Source: Alphaproteobacteria bacterium (GTDB lineage: Bacteria > Pseudomonadota > Alphaproteobacteria > Bin95). From it: a stretch of 64,000 nucleotides of DNA. Below, one piece after another: positions 13,937 through 51,431 of the stretch. The notes under the pieces are model-generated. The model saw nothing but the letters and a program-made list of their open reading frames with translations, did no database searches and was not told where the DNA came from. Within the stretch, counting starts at the first letter, position 1, and each line of letters opens with the position of its first letter. Made by a program: the position numbers and the translations under genes. The stretch lies in contig JACKII010000001.1 in NCBI GenBank assembly GCA_020638555.1, positions 1,287,829 to 1,351,828 of the forward strand. The letters are read 5' to 3'.

Positions 13937-15212
13937 TTACTGGTAGCCCTCCGGGAACGGATCGGGCTCGACCAGGTCGGCGGTCTCGTACACCACCTCG
14001 TACTGGCCGTCGCTGCGGGCCTTGCCGACGCGCGTCTTGGACCAGAGGTGATGGTTTTCGTGGATGCGGACGTAAGCCTTCCGGCGCCTTGGTGAACTCG
14101 ATGCCCGGCGACGCCGCCGCGATCTTGTCGATATCGAAGGAGGCCGGCCTTTTCCGACCGCCATTTCCACAGCCACGGCCCGAGATAGGCGGCCTGGCGT
14201 CACGTCGCCGATCACCATGTTCTCGCCCCACATCTTCTTGAAAGGCGGCGACGAACGCGCCTTGTTGTTCGGGTTGTCCAGCGCTCTGGAAGTACTTCAT
14301 GCAGGCGCATGCGCCGACGATGTTCTCGCCGCCGATGCCGCGATTTCGTCTTCAGTCACCGAAATGGTGAGCAGCAGCGGTTTTGCTTGGTCGATCGATG
14401 CCGGCCGCCTTCAACTGCTTGTAGAAGGCGACGTTGGACCCGCCGACGACGATGGCATAGATCACGTCCGGCTTTTTCAGGCGGATCTTGTTGATGACCG
14501 AGTTGAACTGGGTGTGGCCGAGCGGATAATACTCCTCGCCCACCACTTTCAGGCCCAGCTGGCTTTCGATGTGCTTGCGCGCGATCTTGTTCGAGGTGCG
14601 CGGCCAGATATAGTCGGAGCCCAGCAGATAAAACGACTTGGCGCCCTTGGTCTCGGCCACCCAGTTCAGGCCGGCAATGATCTGCTGCGTCGCCTCCTGG
14701 CCGGTGTAGATCACGTTCGGCGACTGTTCCAGGCCCTCATAGAAGGTCGGATAGTAGAGGAAGCCGTTATACTGCTCGAATACCGGCAGCACCGCCTTGC
14801 GGCTGGCCGACGTCCAGCAGCCCATGACCGAGGCAACCTTGTCGTTGACCAGCAGCTTCTTCGCCTTTTCGGCGAAGGTCGGCCAGTCGGAGGCGCCGTC
14901 TTCCTGGATGAATTCGATCTTGCGGCCCAGCACGCCGCCCATGGCGTTGATCTGCGCGATGGCCAGCTTTTCCGCCTGGACCGACCCGGTCTCGGAAATC
15001 GCCATCGTGCCGGTGATCGAGTGCAGAATGCCGACGGTCGCCGTGGTGTCGGTCACGGCCAGGCCCGTGGTGTTGACCGCCGCGGTCGGGAAGTCCGCCG
15101 CCCGCAGGAATTTCGGCGCGAACAGGCCGGCGGTCAGCGCCGCACCGCCCGCCAGGACGCTGCGGCGGCTCAGGGGGCCGAGAATGGGCGATGTGGGATC
15201 CTTGTCGGACAT
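13937..15212 (-). pseudogene. urea/amide ABC transporter substrate-binding protein (UrtA/FmdD-like), interrupted by at least five frameshifts between about 13940 and 14400
   Basis: intact N-terminus with Tat/Sec-like signal ([42 protein letters not shown]); the C-terminal conserved blocks ([77 protein letters not shown]) are distributed over three frames. Confidence 0.7.
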
Positions 15213-31223: not shown

Positions 31224-31253
31224 GAACATTGCGCGAAAGAACAAAATGTGCAC
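31224..31253 (+). promoter_or_regulatory. candidate (imperfect) alphaproteobacterial SOS box upstream of recA
   Basis: GAAC-attgcgc-GAAA followed by GAAC-aaaatgt-GCAC, about 50-80 bp upstream of the recA ATG; consensus is GAAC-N7-GAAC. Confidence 0.3.
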
Positions 31254-31303
31254 AATGGGGCGTTGCCAACGCGCCGCGGCGCGTGCGATGATGGAGGTAG
31301 TGG

Positions 31304-32413
<1,110 letters not shown>

Positions 32414-43475: not shown

Positions 43476-44522
43476 TCAGGGGGTGTTGCCGCGGTCCTCG
43501 CGCCAGAGGTCGAGCTTTTCCTGCACGACCCGGTCGGAGAAGCCGAAGACGACGGCGTCGGTGCGGGCGCGGTGGCGGCGCCAGGCCCAGCTGGGCGCGA
43601 CCAGGACGTCGCCCGGGCCCCAGCGGAAGGTCTCGCCGCCGATCTCGCTCTCGCCCTCGCCCTCGGCCACGCAGAACACGGTGGCGTCGGTGGCGCGATA
43701 GGGCCGGGTCTCGAAGCCGGCGTCGAAGGCCTGGAGATAGGCGGCCATGGTTGGCATGGCGTGGCCGCCGGTCAACGGGTTGACATAGCGCAGGCGCCGG
43801 CCGTGGCAGGCATCCAGCGGCGCGGCGGCAACCGCGGCCTTGGAGCGGTCGTAAGGGTAGTGGAACACCGGCGAGGTCTGGCCCGGCGGGGTTTCGTCCG
43901 GCAGCATGGCGCTGCCATAGCGGGCCAGGCTCGCGCCCGGCGGCTCGGTCGGGGTGCGCGCCTTCTCGGCCGAGCGTTCGGCAAAGCTGGTGTCCAGCAA
44001 CTGGATCATCGGAATGTCGAGGCCATCGAGCCAAACCACCGGCCCGTCGCCCAGATTGCCGTGGTCGTGCCAGCCCCAGGTGGGCGTGATGACGAAGTCG
44101 CCGGGCCGCATCGTGACCCGCTCGCCCGCCACCGTAGTGTAGCCGCCCTCGCCCTCGATCAGGAAGCGCAGCGCCGTCTGGGCGTGGCGATGGGCCGGCG
44201 CGATCTCGCCCGGCAGCACCAGTTGCAGGCCGGCATAGAGCGAGGTGGTGGCGCGGCTCAGGCCGGCCAGGCCCGGGTTTTCCAGCACCAGCACCCGCCG
44301 CTCGGCTTCCTCGGCCGAGATGATGGCGCCGGAGGCGAGCACGTGCGGCCGCACGGCCGGATAGGACCAGTGCACCGGCCGGCAGCCGGACTGCGGCTCC
44401 GGCGTGATCAGGCCGGCCATCACCTCCCAGAGCGGGGTCAGCGACTGGGGCCGGATCGTGTCGTAGAACGCGGCGCGCTCGGCCGCGGTGTCGGCGGGAG
44501 GAGTGTCGGCGGGTGGGGCCAT
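43476..44522 (-). CDS. gentisate 1,2-dioxygenase (bicupin)
   Basis: 348 aa; two cupin motifs (PGEIAPAHRHAQTALRF..WHDHGN and LTGGHAMPTMAAYLQAF); start at the internal Met MAPPADTPP of the 736-aa track ORF. Confidence 0.8.
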   Translation of the reverse strand: MAPPADTPPADTAAERAAFYDTIRPQSLTPLWEVMAGLITPEPQSGCRPVHWSYPAVRPHVLASGAIISAEEAERRVLVLENPGLAGLSRATTSLYAGLQLVLPGEIAPAHRHAQTALRFLIEGEGGYTTVAGERVTMRPGDFVITPTWGWHDHGNLGDGPVVWLDGLDIPMIQLLDTSFAERSAEKARTPTEPPGASLARYGSAMLPDETPPGQTSPVFHYPYDRSKAAVAAAPLDACHGRRLRYVNPLTGGHAMPTMAAYLQAFDAGFETRPYRATDATVFCVAEGEGESEIGGETFRWGPGDVLVAPSWAWRRHRARTDAVVFGFSDRVVQEKLDLWREDRGNTP

Positions 44523-44692
44523 GGGGCGGCGGGCCTCCCTCGCGGGGGGGTGGGAACAGGTGGTCAGCCTATCAGACCGAAACCGGATGCGGTAGCGCCG
44601 CGTTGGCCAGCCCGTTACCGGATTCGGGTCGGCGGACTTCGCCAAAATCGCCACGGGTTCCGTGGGATAAGGCCGTGGCGATGCCGGCCCTT

Positions 44693-47600
44693 TCAATGAA
44701 AATCCCGCGACGGCACCGGAAACCGCTTGCGGCCTTGCTCCGGCCGGACCGCCGTATCGGCGGGGGTGGGTGGGCCGTCCAGGTCGCCGAGCCAGTGCGA
44801 GCGGTCCTCCAGGCGCTCGGCCACCACGTGGATCACCAGCCCCTCGCGCTGCAACCGCCCCCGCACCCACAGCAGCCGCGCGCCCATGACGATGGCCCGG
44901 TGCGCCTCGAACACTTTCGGCCAGACGATGACGTTGGCGATGCCGGTTTCGTCCTCCAGGGTCGCGAAGATCACGCCCTTGGCGCTGCCCGGCCGCTGCC
45001 GCACCAACACCAGGCCGGCGACGGTCACCGGACGGTCCGCCGGCAGGTGCGGCAGGCGGTTGCTCGGCGCGGCTTCGGGCAGGCGCGGGCGCAGCAGCGC
45101 CAGCGGATGCCGGCGCAGCGTCAGGCGCTGGCGGCGATAGTCCTCCGCCACCTGCTCGCCCAGGCTGGCCTCGGGCAGAAGCACCGCCGGCTCCGCCCGG
45201 CCCTCGCCGGCGGCGGCGAACAGCGGCAGGTCCTCGACCGACGGCGGCAGCGCCCGCACGGCCCAGAGCGCCTGCCGGCGGTTCAGCCCCAGCGAGCCGA
45301 ACGCATCCGCCTCCGCCAGGCGTTCCAGCGCGGCGGCGGAGAGCCCCGCCCGCGCCCGCAGCTCCGCGACCGCGCCATAGCCGCCGGCGGGCCGCGCCGC
45401 CACCAGGGCGGCGGCATCCGCCTCGCGCAGCCCCTTGATCTGCCGCAGCCCCAGCCGCAACGAGCGCTCCGGCCGGGCCGCGGTCACGCCCCAGCCGATT
45501 GAGCCCCGTGCCGGCCCCGGCCCGGCGCCGGGCTCCAGCGTGCAGTCCCAATCGCTGGCGTTGGCATCCGCCGGCAGCACGCGCACGCCGTGTTCGGCCG
45601 CATCGCGCACGATCTGCGCCGGGGCGTAGAAGCCCAGCGGCTGGCTGTTCAGCAGGGCGGCCGCGAACACTTCCGGATAATGGCATTTCAGCCAGGACGA
45701 GACATAGACCAGCAGGGCGAAACTGGCCGCATGGCTTTCGGGAAAGCCGTAAGTGCCGAAGCCCTCGATCTGCTTGAAGCAGCGCTCGGCAAAGTCGCGG
45801 TCATAGCCGCGCGCGACCATGCCGCCGACCATCTTGTCGTAGAATTTGCCGATGTCGCCGCCGCGTTTGAACGTGGCCATGGCCCGGCGCAGCCGGTCGG
45901 CCTCGTCCGGGGTGAAGCCGGCGGCGACGATGGCGATCTTCATCGCCTGTTCCTGGAACAGCGGCACGCCCAGGGTCTTGCCCAGCACCCGTTCCAGGTC
46001 CGGCGAGGGGAATTCCACCTTCTCCCGGCCCTCGCGCCGGCGCAGATAGGGGTGGACCATGTCGCCCTGGATCGGCCCGGGCCGGACGATGGCGACCTCG
46101 ATCACCAGATCGTAGAAATTGCGCGGCTTCAGGCGGGCCAGCATCGACATCTGCGCCCGGCTTTCCACCTGGAACGTGCCGAGGGAATCGGCGCGCGACA
46201 GCATTTCATAGGTGGCCCAGTCGCCCTCCGGCAGGCTGGCAAGGCCCAGGTCGCGGCCATAGTCGGTGCGCAACAGGTCGAACGCCTTGCGCACGCAGGT
46301 CAGCATGCCGAGGCCCAGCACATCCACCTTCAGAATGCCGAGCGCGTCGATGTCGTCCTTGTCCCATTCGATCACCGTGCGCTCGGCCATGGCGGCGTTC
46401 TCGACCGGCACCAGCGCCTCCAGGCTGTCGCGGGCGATGACGAAGCCGCCGGTGTGCTGCGAGAGATGGCGCGGAAAGCCCATCAGCTCGCGCGCCAGCG
46501 TCAGGGTCAGGGCGATGCGCCGGTCGGTCGGGTCCAGGCCGGCCTCGGCCACGCGCTGTTCCACCACGTCGGTGTCGTGCGAGCCCCAGAGGCGGCCGCC
46601 GATCGCGCCCACCGTGTCCGGCGACAGGCCCATGGCCTTGCCCACATCGCGCAGCGCGCCGCGGCCGCGATAGGTGACGACCGTCGCCGTCAGCCCGGCC
46701 CGGTCGCGGCCATAGCGGCGATAGAGATACTGGATCACCTCCTCGCGCCGTTCGTGCTCGAAATCGACGTCGATGTCCGGCGGCTCGTCGCGGGCGGCGG
46801 AGACGAAGCGCTCGAACAGCAGGTCGATGCGCGCCGGATCGACCGCGGTCACGCCCAGGCAGTAGCACACGGCCGAATTCGCCGCCGAGCCCCGCCCCTG
46901 GCAGAGAATGCCCTGGCTGCGGGCAAAGCGGACGATGTCGGTGACCGTCAGGAAATAGGGCGCATAGCCCAGCGTCTCGATCAGGCGCAGCTCGCCCGCG
47001 ATGGCATCCGTCACCTTGGCCGGCACGCCCGCCGGATAGCGCCGGGCCGCGCCCTCGCGGGTCAGGCGGGCCAGGGTCTGCTGGGCGGTCTCGCCTGCGA
47101 CCAGGATTTCCGCCGGGTATTCGTAGCGCAGTTCGTCCAGCGAGAAGGTACAGCGCTCCGCCAACGTCCGCGTGTGGGCGAGCGCCTCCGGCCGTTCGCG
47201 GAACAGGCGGGCCATTTCCGCCGGCGGTTTCAGGTGGCGCTCCGCATGGGCGGCCAGAAGGAAGCCGGCCCGGTCGATGGGGGTGCGGTGGCGGATGCAG
47301 GCCAGCACGTCCGCCAGTGGCTTGCGGCCGGGGGCATGCATCAGCGGCCGGTTGGTCGCCAAGAGCGGCAGCCGGTGCCGGTCCGCCAGTGCTGCGTCCC
47401 CTGCCAAGCCGTCGCTGCCGTCGAAGCGCGGATGCGTGGCGAGATAGAGGTTATGGCCCAGTTCGCCCTTCAGCCGCGCCGCCAGCGCATCGGCGTCGTC
47501 CGCGGCGGGGATCGTCTCCGGCAGCAGGGCGAGTGCCAGCCCTTCGGCCTGCTCCAGCATGTCGGCGAGGTCGAGCCAGCAGGCACCCTTCGGCGCCCGC

Positions 47601-47953
47601 CGCCGGCCGCGGCTGATCAGGCGCGAGAGGCGGGCATAGGCGGCGCGGTCCTCGGGCCAGGCGAGCAGGCTCGGCCCGTCCGGCGGTCGCGGCCGCTGGT
47701 CCGGACCCAGCGGTTTGGCCGCGTAAGCCGCCACGTCCCGCACCAGGTCCAGCCGGGCGCCGACCACATAGCGCAGCCCCGCCCGCCGGGCCGCCACATG
47801 GCCGCGCACCACGCCGGCCAGGCTGTTGCGGTCGCAGATCGCCAGCGCCGAAAGCCCGAGCGCCGCCGCGGCCACGGCCAGTTCGTCCGGGTGCGAGGCG
47901 CCTTCCAGGAAGCTGAAATTGCTCTGCGCGCCGAGTTCGGCATAGGCGGCCAT
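44693..47953 (-). CDS. dnaE2: error-prone DNA polymerase DnaE2 (ImuC)
   Basis: 1086 aa; PHP domain MAAYAELGAQSNFSFLEGASHPDEL; polymerase III alpha core; OB fold. Confidence 0.92.
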   Translation of the reverse strand: MAAYAELGAQSNFSFLEGASHPDELAVAAAALGLSALAICDRNSLAGVVRGHVAARRAGLRYVVGARLDLVRDVAAYAAKPLGPDQRPRPPDGPSLLAWPEDRAAYARLSRLISRGRRRAPKGACWLDLADMLEQAEGLALALLPETIPAADDADALAARLKGELGHNLYLATHPRFDGSDGLAGDAALADRHRLPLLATNRPLMHAPGRKPLADVLACIRHRTPIDRAGFLLAAHAERHLKPPAEMARLFRERPEALAHTRTLAERCTFSLDELRYEYPAEILVAGETAQQTLARLTREGAARRYPAGVPAKVTDAIAGELRLIETLGYAPYFLTVTDIVRFARSQGILCQGRGSAANSAVCYCLGVTAVDPARIDLLFERFVSAARDEPPDIDVDFEHERREEVIQYLYRRYGRDRAGLTATVVTYRGRGALRDVGKAMGLSPDTVGAIGGRLWGSHDTDVVEQRVAEAGLDPTDRRIALTLTLARELMGFPRHLSQHTGGFVIARDSLEALVPVENAAMAERTVIEWDKDDIDALGILKVDVLGLGMLTCVRKAFDLLRTDYGRDLGLASLPEGDWATYEMLSRADSLGTFQVESRAQMSMLARLKPRNFYDLVIEVAIVRPGPIQGDMVHPYLRRREGREKVEFPSPDLERVLGKTLGVPLFQEQAMKIAIVAAGFTPDEADRLRRAMATFKRGGDIGKFYDKMVGGMVARGYDRDFAERCFKQIEGFGTYGFPESHAASFALLVYVSSWLKCHYPEVFAAALLNSQPLGFYAPAQIVRDAAEHGVRVLPADANASDWDCTLEPGAGPGPARGSIGWGVTAARPERSLRLGLRQIKGLREADAAALVAARPAGGYGAVAELRARAGLSAAALERLAEADAFGSLGLNRRQALWAVRALPPSVEDLPLFAAAGEGRAEPAVLLPEASLGEQVAEDYRRQRLTLRRHPLALLRPRLPEAAPSNRLPHLPADRPVTVAGLVLVRQRPGSAKGVIFATLEDETGIANVIVWPKVFEAHRAIVMGARLLWVRGRLQREGLVIHVVAERLEDRSHWLGDLDGPPTPADTAVRPEQGRKRFPVPSRDFH

Positions 47954-47969
47954 CGCACCCCGTCCCGGC

Positions 47970-48395
47970 TTATGCCGTCACCACGTCGCGCAGATGGCAG
48001 ACCAGCGGCCCGGCCTCCGTGCCCTTCACCGCCGCCAGCAGGCGGGCGTCGACCGTCACCATGCGGCCGGCCACGTGCTGGGCGCAGGCGATGTAGAAAC
48101 AGTCGTAGGACGGATGGGCGAGCCGGCGGCTCCACTGCCAGGCCGGCTCCGCCAGGTCGACGCCGGCGACGAGGCGGCGCAGGATCAGCGGCAGGGCGGC
48201 GGCGATCTGCCGGGCATAGTCCTCGGCCAGGTCGTCCTGCTGCCAGCGCTTCCAGAGCAGGTTGGTCAGTTCCGGCACGATCAGGTCCGGCGCGTACAGG
48301 GGCCGGTCGATCTCCAGCAACCGCATGGCCCGATCGCTGCCCGGTTCGGGAAAGAACCATTTCGCGGCAATGCTGGCGTCGACGACGAAGCTCAC
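47970..48395 (-). CDS. vapC: PIN-domain toxin VapC
   Basis: 141 aa; acidic catalytic residues at FVVDAS (D6), VPELTNLL (E), YDCFY (D), TVDARL (D). Confidence 0.85.
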   Translation of the reverse strand: MSFVVDASIAAKWFFPEPGSDRAMRLLEIDRPLYAPDLIVPELTNLLWKRWQQDDLAEDYARQIAAALPLILRRLVAGVDLAEPAWQWSRRLAHPSYDCFYIACAQHVAGRMVTVDARLLAAVKGTEAGPLVCHLRDVVTA

Positions 48396-48625
48396 CGTCC
48401 GCGGCCCTCCCGGACCAGGGCGGTGCTGTCGCCGAACCGGCGGGGACCGGCCAGGGCGCGGATGCGCTGGCTGATGCGGGCGAAGTCGGCGGGCGGCGGC
48501 GCGGCCGCGGCATCGGTCAGCAGCGCGCGCAGTTCCGCTTCCAGCGAGCGGTTGTGGCGCCGGGCCTGCGCCCTCAGACGCTCGGCAACCGCGTCGTCCA
48601 GGTTGCGGATGGTGATCGTGGCCAT
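48392..48625 (-). CDS. vapB: ribbon-helix-helix antitoxin VapB (FitA/Arc-like)
   Basis: 77 aa; MATITIRNLDDAVAERLRAQARRHNRSLEAELRALL; 4-nt ATGA overlap with vapC; AGGGAG ribosome-binding site upstream. Confidence 0.75.
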   Translation of the reverse strand: MATITIRNLDDAVAERLRAQARRHNRSLEAELRALLTDAAAAPPPADFARISQRIRALAGPRRFGDSTALVREGRGR

Positions 48626-48663
48626 GGTGTTCGGCTCCCTTGTCTTTATTCCTATGATCGAGC

Positions 48664-50229
48664 TCACCCGAAAATGCCGTGCACGAACCAGCCGGGTTTC
48701 GGCTTCCCGTCGGTTCCGCCCGCTCCCGCGCCGTCGTACAGCCCCTGGCGGAACACCCAGAGCCGCTGGCCGGCGGCGTTCTCCACCCGGTAATAGTCGC
48801 GGGTGCGGCGGGCGAGGGGGGCGGCCGGGTCGTCCGGCGGTGCCTCGCGCCACCATTCCGGCGTCAGCCGTTGCGGACCCTCGCCGCGGACGATGCGGTG
48901 CAGCACCTTGCCCCAGCGGATCGCGGCGGGCGGATAGTCCGGCAGCAGCGCCGTCGCCTCCACCGGCTCCGGCCGGGCCAGCAGGCGCAGCGGCAGCACC
49001 TCGCCCGGCGGCGGCTGCCAGTCGGCCCAGCGCGCCGCCACCTCCGCCGCCGCGTGGTGCAGGGCCGGCAGCGGTTCGACCCGCCGTTCCGGCAGGTGGC
49101 TGGTCACCGGCGCCATCCACCGCACCCGTTCCGGCCCCAGCCGCTGGCTGAGGCGGTCGATCAGCGCCGCCATGGCATCGTCCGTCGCGGCCCGGTCCTG
49201 CCAGAACCCGCATTCCGTCGGGGCGAGGCGTTCGGTTTCCGGCGCGCTCAGCACCAGGGTTTCGATGCCGAAGCCCAGGTCGCAGCCCTCCAGTTGCCCT
49301 TCCAGCAGGCGCAGCAGACGCGCCGGCTGGCGCACCGGCCGGCTGGTGCGCGCGGTGGCCCGGTGCACCCGGCCATCCATGGCATAGCAGGCCAGTTCCA
49401 GCCGTCGCGCGCCGCTCTCCGCCGTTTCCAACTGCCGGCAGAGTTCCGCCAGCAGCCGGTCGACGACGGCGCTCAGATCCTCCGCCCGGATCAGCGGTTC
49501 GGCCTCGTCCCGGCGCAGGCGGAAGGGCGGCGGCGGGTGGCGGGCCGCCAGCGATTCCGCCGTCCGTCCCAGCGCCTGGTCCAGCCGGCGCAGCAGTTGC
49601 GCGCCGAAGCGCCGGGCGAGCGGCGCCCGCGGCAGGCCGGCCACGTCGCCGATGCGCCGCAGGCCCACCTGCGCCAGGTCCGCCACCGTTGCCGCCGGCA
49701 GGCGCAGCGCGGCGAGCGGCAGCGGTGCCAGGGATTGCCGCAGCGCCGCCGATCCGCCCGGTGCAGTCCATGCCCGGCCATAGCGGGCCAGGGCCCAGGC
49801 CGCGCCCGGCGTTTCCGCCATCGCCGCCCGCGCCTCGAAGCCGAAGCCCTCCAGCCGCGCCAGCAGGTCGTCGCGCAATGCCGCCTCGCCGCCGAACAGG
49901 TGGTCGCAGCCGGTCGTGTCCAGCAGCAGCCCGTCCGCGCCGTCCAGCGCCAGCAGCGGCGTGTAGCGCTCGCACCAGTCGGCGAGCCGGCCAAGGCCGC
50001 GCAACTCCCGCAGCGGGTTGGCCGGGTGGGTTCGCAGCGCGGGGTGCAGCGCCCGCGCATCCGCCAGCGTCATGCCGGCGGCGATGCCCAACGCCGCCGC
50101 CGCGGCGTTGGCGGCGGCCACGCGCGGCACGCCGGCCGTCTCCGCCAGGGTGGCGAGCGGCTCCACCGTTCGGCCCAGCCGGTCGGTGGCGAACCGGGGC
50201 AGCCAGAGCGAGAGATAGCGTCGGCTCAT
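48664..50229 (-). CDS. imuB: Y-family-like mutagenesis protein ImuB
   Basis: MSRRYLSLWLPRFATDRL N-terminus typical of ImuB; 521 aa; start taken at the second Met of the track ORF. Confidence 0.85.
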   Translation of the reverse strand: MSRRYLSLWLPRFATDRLGRTVEPLATLAETAGVPRVAAANAAAAALGIAAGMTLADARALHPALRTHPANPLRELRGLGRLADWCERYTPLLALDGADGLLLDTTGCDHLFGGEAALRDDLLARLEGFGFEARAAMAETPGAAWALARYGRAWTAPGGSAALRQSLAPLPLAALRLPAATVADLAQVGLRRIGDVAGLPRAPLARRFGAQLLRRLDQALGRTAESLAARHPPPPFRLRRDEAEPLIRAEDLSAVVDRLLAELCRQLETAESGARRLELACYAMDGRVHRATARTSRPVRQPARLLRLLEGQLEGCDLGFGIETLVLSAPETERLAPTECGFWQDRAATDDAMAALIDRLSQRLGPERVRWMAPVTSHLPERRVEPLPALHHAAAEVAARWADWQPPPGEVLPLRLLARPEPVEATALLPDYPPAAIRWGKVLHRIVRGEGPQRLTPEWWREAPPDDPAAPLARRTRDYYRVENAAGQRLWVFRQGLYDGAGAGGTDGKPKPGWFVHGIFG

Positions 50230-50253
50230 TTTGTTCCTCCTGCCGGGCATTAA

Positions 50254-50268
50254 GTTCTATATATGTTC
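50254..50268. promoter_or_regulatory. alphaproteobacterial LexA (SOS) box GTTC-N7-GTTC
   Basis: GTTCTATATATGTTC, a perfect direct repeat, about 30 bp upstream of the imuB start on the minus strand. Confidence 0.6.
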
Positions 50269-50390
50269 TGTTTTCAAGCGAAAAATTGGCACCGACCATT
50301 CGTCTTTCGCCCTCGCGGCAATCGCCCCGCTGGGCAGGCGGAGCGCGCCATGGCAGAGTGCGGTCGGTTTCCGTTCGATGGAGCAGCCCC

Positions 50391-51431
50391 TTGGCCTCGA
50401 CGTCTGCGACCGCAAAGCCGATCAATCTCGCACTGCAAGGCGGCGGCTCGCACGGGGCCTTCACCTGGGGCGTGCTCGATCGCATTCTGGAAGACGAGCG
50501 TCTGGTGGTGGAGGCGATCGGCGGCACCAGCGCCGGCGCCATGAACGCGGTGGTCGCGGCCAGCGGCCTGATCGAGGACGGGCGCGACGGCGCGCGCCGC
50601 CATCTGGCCGCCTTCTGGACCGCGGTGGCCGAGGCCGGCCGCTCCAGCCCGCTGAAGCGCAGCCCGATCGACGTCTGGATGGGCAACTGGTCGCTCGACA
50701 ACTCGCCGGTCTACATCCTGTTCGACCTGATGAGCCGCCTGACCTCGCCCTATGATTTCAATCCGTTCGACCTGAACCCGTTGCGCGACCTGGTGGAACG
50801 CCAGGTCGATTTCGCCAGGCTGCGCGAGACGCCGGGGGTCGACCTCTATCTTTCGGCCACGAACGTGAAGACCGGCCATGTGCGCGTGTTCCAGCGCGCA
50901 GAGGTGACGGCGGACGTGGTGATGGCGTCCGCCTGTCTGCCGCACCTGTTCCACGCGGTCGAGATCGGCGATCACGCCTATTGGGACGGCGGCTATATGG
51001 GCAATCCCTCGCTGTTCCCGTTCTTCCACCGCAGCGAATCCGCCGACATCGTCATCGTCCAGATCAACCCGATCGTGCGCGAGGAGGTGCCGCGCACCGC
51101 CCGCGAAATCCTCGACCGCCTGAACGAGATCACCTTCAACAGCTCGCTGCTGGGCGAGATGCGGGCCATCGAATTCGTGCATCGCCTGCTGGAGGACGGC
51201 CATCTGGCGGAGGGCCGGTATCGCCAGATCCTGATCCACATGATCGAGTCGCGGAAGACGCTGCGCTCGCTCGGCGCCTCGTCGAAGCTGAACACCGAGA
51301 TGGACTTTCTGCGCTATCTGTTCGAAACCGGGCGCCGGGTCGCCGATCGCTGGCTGGCCGAGCATTTCGACGATATCGGCGTGCGCGGCACCGTCGACCT
51401 GAAAGCCGTCGTCAGCGGCCCCCGATCTTGA
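50391..51431 (+). CDS. patatin-like phospholipase
   Basis: oxyanion hole GGGSHGAF; serine hydrolase motif GTSAGA; DGG catalytic Asp motif (YWDGGYMGN); no ATG nearby, so a TTG start at 50391 is assumed. Confidence 0.7.
   Translation: MASTSATAKPINLALQGGGSHGAFTWGVLDRILEDERLVVEAIGGTSAGAMNAVVAASGLIEDGRDGARRHLAAFWTAVAEAGRSSPLKRSPIDVWMGNWSLDNSPVYILFDLMSRLTSPYDFNPFDLNPLRDLVERQVDFARLRETPGVDLYLSATNVKTGHVRVFQRAEVTADVVMASACLPHLFHAVEIGDHAYWDGGYMGNPSLFPFFHRSESADIVIVQINPIVREEVPRTAREILDRLNEITFNSSLLGEMRAIEFVHRLLEDGHLAEGRYRQILIHMIESRKTLRSLGASSKLNTEMDFLRYLFETGRRVADRWLAEHFDDIGVRGTVDLKAVVSGPRS

Follow-up and report, generated by a model that had tools for sequence, protein, structure and literature searches.

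What maintains a toxin–antitoxin pair between the two core genes of a mutagenesis cassette, and which promoter drives it there? Most accounts treat toxin–antitoxin (TA) modules as highly mobile genes that vary from strain to strain. In the stretch of alphaproteobacterial DNA analysed here (64 kb, referred to below as the window), a vapBC pair separates imuB from dnaE2. A search of the literature found no paper that links a TA or PIN protein to imuB–dnaE2. An earlier note on this DNA, made from the letters alone, proposed that the pair is co-transcribed with the cassette under SOS control, and the open reading frames, gene identities and spacings that it gave match exactly those obtained from the ORF list, Pfam and NCBIfam. 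The features are as follows, with imuB the first gene of the presumed operon.

44693–47953, minus strand: dnaE2, 1086 aa; NCBIfam NF004225 'error-prone DNA polymerase', 1391 bits against a cutoff of 939
47970–48395, minus strand: vapC, 141 aa; predicted PIN-domain toxin; GTG start; PF01850, 2.8e-11
48392–48625, minus strand: vapB, 77 aa; FitA-like ribbon-helix-helix antitoxin; PF22513, 6.9e-17
48626–48663, minus strand: imuB–vapB spacer, 38 nt; remnant of the vapBC control region, lacking an operator palindrome
48635–48640, minus strand: vapB ribosome-binding site AGGGAG, 9 nt ahead of the vapB ATG
48664–50229, minus strand: imuB, 521 aa; operon gene 1; Pfam IMS, 1.7e-8
50249–50254, minus strand: putative -10-like hexamer CTTAAT, placed by consensus; conserved in clade members
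50254–50268, unstranded: LexA-type box GTTCTATATATGTTC (GAACATATATAGAAC), GAAC-N7-GAAC on the coding strand; 24 nt ahead of the imuB ATG
50272–50277, minus strand: putative -35-like hexamer TTGAAA of the cassette promoter, placed by consensus

The genes are closely packed: 38 nt separate imuB from vapB and 16 nt separate vapC from dnaE2, while the vapB stop overlaps the vapC start by 4 nt (GTGA), an arrangement in which VapB is translationally coupled to VapC. The next gene upstream of imuB is divergent and belongs to the patatin family (Pfam Patatin, 4.3e-21). The dnaE2 product carries the Pfam domains PHP, DNA_pol3_alpha, finger, HHH_6 and OB and, scoring above the NF004225 cutoff, is a DnaE2-type error-prone C-family polymerase. 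ImuB is Y-family-like, aligns over its full length with the ImuB proteins of 80 related cassettes and is 57–82% identical to those of seven loci of the same clade (L001–L006 and L099).

The profile-HMM matches listed above bear out the identification of the pair as PIN and ribbon-helix-helix (RHH) proteins. The closest solved structure to the vapB product is FitA (2H1O/2BSQ; E ~1e-3), and the VapB N-terminus (MATxTIRNLDD...RSLEAELR) is conserved in all junction copies. An AlphaFold2 model of VapC (pLDDT 95.6) has a confident PIN fold, the best PDB match of which is PAE0151 (2FE1; TM 0.78–0.84), followed by many VapC toxins. A family alignment of 27 members shows no variation at D6, E42, D98 or D116; judged by alignment and model, the PIN active site appears intact, and VapC is presumably toxic. 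The pair thus resembles the FitAB/VapBC family, typified by FitAB of Neisseria gonorrhoeae, in its RHH antitoxin, in the four acidic residues of its PIN toxin, and in an antitoxin gene that comes first with overlapping stop and start codons. It differs in that the closest solved structure to the toxin is the archaeal PAE0151 and not FitB.

The existence of a LexA-type box ahead of imuB is established by conservation across related cassettes, and not by the number of such boxes in the window, where GTTC-N7-GTTC occurs twice against 1.45 expected, which is not above chance. Nearly every related cassette opens with a GAAC-N7-GAAC box that has an A/T-rich spacer, and the position of the box, -38 to -40 from the imuB start, is constant in L001–L006 and L099, the seven other loci of the clade for which upstream sequence exists. 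The box fills the 17-nt spacer between the TTGAAA and CTTAAT hexamers; CTTGAAA, which includes the -35-like hexamer, is kept in L001, L003, L005, L099 and L179, and the GGAGGA ribosome-binding site of imuB and its ATG at 50229 are kept in relatives. A stricter consensus promoter scan did not list the TTGAAA-17-CTTAAT arrangement, and consensus scans of positions 44400–50600 found no terminator-like or sigma-70-like sites. From the conservation of the box we infer that the cassette is under LexA control. As in canonical imuA–imuB–dnaE2 cassettes (Caulobacter, Pseudomonas; mycobacterial ImuA'–ImuB–DnaE2), a LexA box heads the cassette and an ImuB with a RecA-NT motif is followed by DnaE2. Unlike them, this cassette has a TA pair lodged between imuB and dnaE2, and an adjacent imuA is absent in the window's clade, with none found in the 64-kb window.

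The earlier note allowed that vapBC might prove to be a strain-specific passenger. The synteny comparison excludes this, since the pair is conserved at this junction across the window's clade, and several further lineages have it there too. Among the 80 closest species-level genome loci, 11 have vapB–vapC between imuB and dnaE2. The same FitA/PIN family occupies the junction in 14 further metagenomic contigs. Carriers include L089, L090, L179 and L180, and also 10 loci among the best 80 that VapC matched in metagenomes; all the loci derive from metagenome-assembled genomes (MAGs) or metagenomes. Decayed remnants occur in four more loci, with vapB only in L004, L071 and L077 and an N-truncated vapC in L078. 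The upstream order MBL–patatin–box–imuB is kept in L003 and L006, and is also seen in L004 and L099, whose contigs stop within the MBL gene. The junction is empty in most of the 80 related cassettes, and in other lineages it contains unrelated cargo: IS200-like Y1 transposases, DUF559 endonuclease-like genes, a glyoxalase-family gene, a histidine kinase and DUF5131.

For 16 of 17 junction VapC lineages the nearest neighbour is another junction VapC (permutation p <= 1e-4), and junction VapCs group together, apart from about 70 non-junction relatives. Strict monophyly of the junction VapCs receives no bootstrap support (bootstrap NJ, 139 columns), and we therefore rely on the nearest-neighbour permutation test; one capture event or a few would fit the data alike. 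Pairwise identities of VapC follow those of ImuB closely (Pearson 0.96, Spearman 0.83). Within clades dS of vapBC is about that of imuB, and the co-divergence of junction VapC with ImuB spans dS of ~1–2. The vapC gene is under purifying selection in the window's clade (dN/dS 0.23–0.58). In the L010 group, where Leu occupies the position of VapC D98 and the VapB C-terminus is remodelled, vapC dN/dS is 0.05–0.09, equal to that of imuB despite the D98L change. One TA family is here tied to a single junction in the main non-Pol V mutagenesis cassette, and has co-diverged with it across many species.

The region immediately upstream of vapB bears on which promoter drives the pair. The density of TGMTAKCA palindromes is 13.75 per kb within the 80 nt ahead of vapB and 0.07 per kb overall, and 53 of 70 related loci have FitA-type operator palindromes in front of vapB. 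These 8-bp palindromes in relatives are of the TGCTATCA/TGATAGCA type, which we take to resemble the published FitA operator. Judged by sequence, a FitA-type operator and promoter remain ahead of vapB in most embedded pairs, and such a promoter would also read into dnaE2. The window has lost this region: TGMTAKCA is found nowhere in the 64 kb, and alignment with the 63–72-nt spacers of L001, L002, L003, L099 and L179 shows that ~30 nt of the spacer have been deleted, removing TGCTAGCA. Elsewhere the operator palindromes are degenerate (L179, L180) or absent (L006, L004 and the L010 group). A promoter of its own just upstream of vapB had been named in the earlier note as an argument against co-transcription; one is present in most relatives and deleted in the window, so the argument does not apply here. 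With operator and promoter deleted, vapBC expression would come from the LexA-box promoter. Co-transcription of imuB–vapB–vapC–dnaE2 from the SOS promoter, as first proposed, is likely in this genome, in which there is no internal terminator or promoter-like site by consensus scan and the operator palindromes are gone.

Taken across the loci, a series of states is visible: the autonomous promoter intact; the promoter lost, as in the window; the catalytic residue lost and the protein conserved; and the pair pseudogenised. The series offers a natural test set for two questions, namely, whether chromosomal TA pairs act beyond stabilising their neighbourhood, and what, apart from LexA, governs expression of the error-prone DnaE2.

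The explanation that we consider probable is that a FitAB-type VapBC is resident in imuB–dnaE2 cassettes, internal to a LexA-repressed operon in this genome, and kept by addiction. A FitAB-type VapBC would have been captured at the imuB–dnaE2 junction and thereafter co-inherited with the cassette. Most carriers would have retained the VapB-operated promoter, giving two-promoter cassettes, as in E. coli dinB–yafNO. In the lineage of the window the vapBC operator and promoter would first have decayed and then been deleted, leaving a single LexA-repressed operon, P(LexA box)–imuB–vapB–vapC–dnaE2, from which vapBC would be made together with the mutasome after DNA damage. The most likely role of the pair would be addiction, vapBC making the cassette hard to lose; a side effect may be a pulse of RNase-mediated translation arrest whenever degradation of VapB outpaces that of VapC, whether during SOS or afterwards. 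Should the pair merely stabilise the cassette, the case would be a tidy evolutionary one with little mechanistic consequence. Several points weigh against this explanation. Tight LexA repression may leave basal VapBC too low for addiction, and a weak promoter within the 3' end of imuB may escape consensus scans. The junction also takes unrelated cargo and is to that extent a permissive site, which may account for part of the recurrence. Finally, strong purifying selection on the D98L toxin of the L010 group is not explained by pure addiction.

The closest precedent for a TA pair in an SOS polymerase operon is E. coli dinB–yafNO, to which the earlier note aptly compared the locus. There, two promoters serve yafNO, namely, the SOS promoter of dinB and one just ahead of the antitoxin gene that YafN autoregulates (PMC2814082), and the gene content of the dinB–yafN–yafO–yafP operon varies between strains (PMC3105422). 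In both systems a type II TA pair is co-oriented with, and downstream of, an error-prone polymerase gene that is under LexA control (in the window, by prediction), and as in dinB–yafNO no terminator separates polymerase gene from TA pair in the window by consensus scan. The second, antitoxin-autoregulated promoter has its counterpart in the two-promoter layout predicted for the window's operator-bearing relatives, and induction of the TA pair by damage from the upstream polymerase promoter, known for dinB–yafN–yafO–yafP, would be expected in the window. The differences are considerable. A PIN/VapC RNase with a FitA-type RHH antitoxin takes the place of the RelE-like YafO with YafN, and ImuB–DnaE2 that of Pol IV; the pair lies between two mutasome genes, ahead of the one for the catalytic subunit; many alphaproteobacterial species-level lineages share the association, in which the pair co-diverges with the cassette; and the proximal TA promoter is deleted in the window. 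With respect to the FitAB/VapBC family, too, the window copy is unusual in having no operator or promoter of its own and in being embedded in an SOS operon.

An alternative is that vapBC is a neutral selfish passenger: the junction would be a permissive landing site, the pair would be kept by its own addiction, and its co-expression with the cassette would be incidental and of no effect on SOS or mutagenesis. The unrelated cargo at the same junction in other lineages, the several decaying copies (L004, L071, L077 and L078) and the empty junction of most of the 80 related cassettes are all as this would predict. We nevertheless think it unlikely, because junction VapCs cluster with one another and not with the ~70 non-junction relatives, and because VapC co-diverges with ImuB over dS ~1–2. 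The L010-group copy is a further difficulty, for it lacks the catalytic Asp and is presumably non-toxic, yet has a dN/dS (~0.05–0.09) like that of imuB. Moreover, with vapBC upstream of dnaE2, the state of the vapBC promoter necessarily affects dnaE2 transcription.

Rather unlikely, in our estimate, is that the ImuB–DnaE2 mutasome cassette has taken on a dedicated VapBC lineage as a working component, whether as a LexA-independent dnaE2 promoter switch that senses antitoxin degradation or, in lineages that have lost the PIN active site while selection remains as strong as on imuB, as a non-nuclease accessory subunit. The window would then be an intermediate stage, in which the pair, having relinquished its separate promoter, had become obligately tied to the SOS operon. 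We regard it as quite unlikely that VapBC is a co-opted, working part of mutasome control. The pair might supply a second, LexA-independent and stress-sensing dnaE2 promoter, derepressed upon degradation of VapB; VapC might trim specific RNAs and so time translesion synthesis; or, where PIN is inactive, the product might be a non-nuclease accessory protein. Operator-bearing copies do lie 1–50 nt upstream of dnaE2, with no space for a terminator, at least two clades have kept the pair over long periods, and selection on both genes in the L010 group equals that on imuB despite D98L and the remodelled VapB C-terminus. Against co-option, most cassettes function without vapBC, the pair decays in several lineages, the operator needed for a second promoter is missing in the window, and neither of two recent surveys that deal systematically with bacterial DNA polymerases, the Y family among them, uses the word 'toxin' (PMC6511836, PMC12926913).

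The absence of imuA from the cassette, pointed out in the earlier note, is confirmed: tblastn with 34 ImuA proteins found no ImuA-like sequence in the 64-kb window, and a profile HMM found no ImuA there, its sole weak match being recA itself. No imuA lies upstream of imuB in L003, L005 or L006 (~10 kb of upstream sequence each), and an adjacent imuA is absent throughout the window's clade. That vapBC replaced or compensates for imuA is very improbable, even though every clade member lacks an adjacent imuA and carries vapBC or a remnant of it, because eleven cassettes hold both (L010, L034, L052, L055, L058, L060, L062, L089, L090, L122 and L132), cassettes with neither exist (L013 and L048), vapBC lies downstream of imuB and not in the position of imuA, nothing in the PIN/RHH pair resembles the RecA-like ImuA, and ImuB still carries the motif through which ImuA or RecA is bound. 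The suggestion that vapBC displaced imuA is accordingly rejected on the co-occurrence of the two, and the loss of imuA is a trait in its own right in the window's clade.

The RecA-NT motif of ImuB binds ImuA or RecA (PMC11791113). Since the RecA-NT-like motif ALIDRLSQRLGPERVRWMAPVTSHLPERR is conserved in the window's ImuB, a partner is still to be expected, be it RecA or the product of an unlinked imuA. The ImuA-less variants in the literature reportedly lack a typical ImuB as well (PMC6511836), unlike the cassette described here, in which ImuB is typical. The window's clade, with a typical ImuB–DnaE2 and no linked imuA, thus bears on the substitution of RecA for ImuA.

The 3' end of vapC (GRMVTVDARLLAAVKGTEAGPLVCHLRDVVTA) is highly conserved, and a regulatory element acting at the nucleotide level was considered there and rejected. 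Synonymous sites vary: codons for invariant residues are identical at 12 of 26 positions in the 3' end, compared with 11 of 34 in the N-terminal part. The variation shows that the constraint acts on the protein.

Re-reading of the sequence confirmed the coordinates, strands and spacings that the earlier note had given for imuB-vapB-vapC-dnaE2: imuB and vapB are separated by 38 nt, vapB and vapC overlap by 4 nt, and 16 nt lie between vapC and dnaE2. The PIN and RHH assignments of the two small proteins, checked against profiles, also held.

50254-50268: LexA-type box GTTCTATATATGTTC, 24 nt before the imuB ATG
48664-50229, minus strand: imuB, 521-aa protein with the IMS (Y-family) fold (Pfam)
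48392-48625, minus strand: vapB, 77-aa FitA-like RHH protein (6.9e-17)
47970-48395, minus strand: vapC, 141-aa PIN protein (Pfam, 2.8e-11)
44693-47953, minus strand: dnaE2, 1086-aa protein of the NCBIfam 'error-prone DNA polymerase' subfamily, score far over cutoff
31301-32410, plus strand: recA (Pfam RecA, 2.4e-143), ~12 kb from the cassette
31239-31253: near-consensus box GAACAAAATGTGCAC, ~50 nt upstream of recA, one mismatch to GAAC-N7-GAAC

The divergent gene upstream of imuB encodes a patatin (Pfam). A 27-member family alignment shows no variation at the four acidic residues of the VapC PIN domain (D6, E42, D98 and D116), and the AlphaFold2 model of VapC (pLDDT 95.6) matches PAE0151 and a long series of VapC toxins; the best solved-structure relative of VapB is FitA. 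The C-terminal 32 residues of VapC (110-141; window 47970-48068; GRMVTVDARLLAAVKGTEAGPLVCHLRDVVTA) are near-invariant in the clade while the remaining protein is ~50% identical, and because synonymous sites vary there the constraint is on the protein level.

To place the pair we used 80 genome loci, at species level, that encode relatives of ImuB (L-numbers denote these and further genome or metagenome loci; the window's clade is L001-L006, L099, L179 and L180). In tblastn searches with the window's VapB and VapC, 11 of the 80 carry vapB-vapC, in the same order, at the imuB-dnaE2 junction: four in the window's clade (L001, L002, L003, L006), five in a second group (L010, L034, L058, L060, L062) and two isolated (L052, L055). 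Remnants occur in L004, L071 and L077 (vapB only) and in L078 (N-truncated vapC). Database homologues of VapC add L089 and L090 (imuA-imuB-vapB-vapC), L179 and L180. The same pair thus recurs across genomes and further contigs, which excludes a strain-specific passenger, an outcome the earlier note had left open. All of this evidence is computational and drawn largely from MAGs and metagenomic contigs; recurrence in many independent assemblies argues against an assembly artefact.

In 10 of the 80 loci returned by a metagenome scan with a VapC alignment, the pair is flanked by ImuB or DnaE2; the remaining ~70 lie in unrelated contexts. The VapBC family overall is ordinary and widespread, and a sizeable fraction of the closest relatives of the window's VapBC sits at the imuB-dnaE2 junction. 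In other lineages the junction holds IS200-like Y1 transposases, DUF559 endonuclease-like genes, a glyoxalase/bleomycin-resistance-family gene, a histidine kinase or DUF5131 (unrelated cargo at L012:11568-12206, L051:5635-6288, L029:11835-12161, L070:11803-12207, L028:11655-12092, L040:11685-12119, L052:11598-12086, L019:7378-8118 and L071:5686-6459); it is a recurrent insertion site. Between vapC and dnaE2 of L099 (L099:3725-3855) lies a tandem duplication of ~100 nt from the vapC 3' end.

Pairwise identities of VapC and ImuB are strongly correlated (Pearson 0.96, Spearman 0.83). On the ImuB tree vapBC carriers are scattered over at least four places; on the VapC tree all junction copies outside the window's clade group together, with only two non-junction sequences among them, and those of the window's clade make up another group. 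With sequences dereplicated at 60% identity, the nearest neighbor is a junction VapC in 16 of 17 junction lineages (permutation p <= 1e-4); bootstrapping of the alignment (139 columns) did not recover strict monophyly of junction VapCs. Taken together, the identity correlation, the trees and the nearest-neighbor test point to one or a few cassette-resident vapBC lineages that move and diverge with the cassette, and make independent random insertions unlikely. Synonymous divergence (dS) of vapB and of vapC is close to that of imuB within clades, and both genes are under purifying selection (dN/dS in the window's clade: vapC 0.23-0.58, imuB 0.20-0.44; in the L010 group: vapC 0.05-0.09, imuB 0.06-0.08).

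GTTC-N7-GTTC occurs twice in the window against 1.45 expected, a count that by itself is no proof of a box. Across the 80 loci, however, a GAAC-N7-GAAC box with an A/T-rich spacer stands at the head of nearly all cassettes, upstream of imuA where imuA is present. In the window the box occupies the 17-nt spacer separating TTGAAA from a CTTAAT hexamer; its position is fixed in L001-L006 and L099 (-38 to -40 relative to the imuB start), and the CTTGAAA, CTTAAT and AGGAGGAAC-AAAATG flanks are likewise conserved in the clade. Conservation of this predicted site across related cassettes means that LexA control is well supported. The second perfect match, GTTCGGCGACTGTTC at 14715-14729, is probably due to chance, since its spacer is GC-rich, unlike that of every cassette box.

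Palindromes of 8 bp, TG(C/A)TA(G/T)CA, lie within the 80 nt preceding vapB in 53 of 70 loci, often two or three together with 11-nt spacing around a CATAAT-like element. Their density there is 13.75 per kb, compared to 0.07 per kb overall, and both non-junction relatives and the majority of junction copies have them. Such palindromes are the likely antitoxin operator and promoter expected for a FitA-type module (we take the FitA operator to be TGCTATCA/TGATAGCA). Most embedded modules would then be transcribed from two promoters, and since merely 1-50 nt separate vapC from dnaE2 in these modules, transcription from the vapB promoter should continue into dnaE2 as well.

State of the palindrome upstream of vapB
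Intact: L001, L002, L003, L099
Degenerate: L179 (VapC 87% identical to the window's), L180
Deleted, ~30 nt lost: the window (38-nt spacer versus 63-72 nt)
Absent: L006, L004
Absent, 13-nt spacer: L010 group

No copy of the palindrome occurs anywhere in the 64-kb window, and a scan of the cassette found no terminator-like or sigma-70-like site within it. Given this loss, the window's vapBC appears to have no autonomous control, and its expression must, on the sequence, come from the LexA-box promoter. The earlier proposal, made from spacing, that vapBC is probably co-transcribed with imuB-dnaE2 thus holds up for this genome, with operator loss as the stronger ground.

P(LexA)-imuB-vapB-vapC-dnaE2 would accordingly be a single SOS operon, in which VapB and VapC are made, after damage, in coupled fashion with ImuB and DnaE2. 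If the pair behaves as known VapBC modules do, a transient RNase-mediated translation block would follow whenever VapB is degraded faster than VapC; vapBC would be kept chiefly through addiction, its loss being costly, and would incidentally shield a cassette otherwise easily lost.

Instead of pure addiction, the cassette may have co-opted vapBC. In all five L010-group VapCs (L010:11839-12261, L034:11839-12261, L058:11839-12261, L060:11752-12174, L062:11836-12258) Leu replaces catalytic Asp98 (HLATY versus YDCFY), and the VapB C-terminus is remodelled; dN/dS of vapB-vapC is nevertheless 0.05-0.11, a constraint equal to that on imuB. This VapC may be a domesticated, non-nuclease PIN protein, and a copy apparently inactive yet constrained counts against pure addiction. 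Against a special role, most cassettes are without the pair, some copies decay, and the junction takes other cargo too.

The nearest precedent is E. coli dinB-yafNO, an SOS-regulated TA in a translesion-polymerase operon with dual promoters, where two-promoter transcription was demonstrated experimentally (PMC2814082). Here the TA family and the polymerase system differ, the pair sits between two mutasome genes, and the association is broad and old. In the literature searched we found no publication that connects a TA or PIN protein with imuB-dnaE2, and neither of two recent systematic surveys covering bacterial DNA polymerases, those of the Y family included (PMC6511836, PMC12926913), contains the word 'toxin'. 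The window is one instance of the association, notable for promoter loss and an imuA-less background.

In more distant loci a ~260-280-aa protein directly upstream of imuB is an NCBIfam ImuA_translesion match (E-values 1e-19 to 1e-16, short of the equivalog cutoff). When 34 such ImuA-type proteins served as tblastn queries, almost every locus matched just upstream of imuB; there is no match in the 64-kb window or in L001-L006 (for three of these, ~10 kb of upstream sequence was covered), and the sole match of an ImuA profile HMM in the window is recA. The reported lack of an ImuA-like ORF at the cassette is thus borne out within 64 kb. The order MBL-fold gene, patatin, box, imuB is common to the window's clade, which indicates that the imuA-less state is old and vertically inherited.

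The earlier suggestion that vapBC displaced imuA is contradicted by 11 cassettes with both (L010, L034, L052, L055, L058, L060, L062, L089, L090, L122, L132) and by L013 and L048 with neither; judged by gene content, imuA loss and vapBC presence are independent traits. At L013 (imuB 3713) and L048 (imuB 2998) the LexA box immediately precedes imuB, and the 3-3.7 kb upstream of it that were searched give no ImuA match; these two may have lost linked imuA independently.

ImuB of the imuA-less clade retains a RecA-NT-like motif, and in mycobacteria this motif is essential for ImuA' binding (PMC11791113); a partner, an unlinked ImuA or RecA, is therefore still expected. RecA was proposed by Timinskas and Venclovas for other ImuA-less variants, which were noted to be also without typical ImuB (PMC6511836). 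At the site immediately preceding the RecA-NT motif, the ImuB sequence reads xxFW in the imuA-less clade (ECGFWQ, window ~49200-49220) but Q-x-x-L/F in ImuA-bearing relatives. This is presumably the beta-clamp-binding position, and the clamp motif may have changed together with imuA loss. In many ImuA-bearing loci the imuA ORF extends ~65-80 nt beyond the start of the ImuB alignment (e.g., L008:9295-10080, imuB start 10001), so that these have either a substantial imuA/imuB overlap or a later imuB start.
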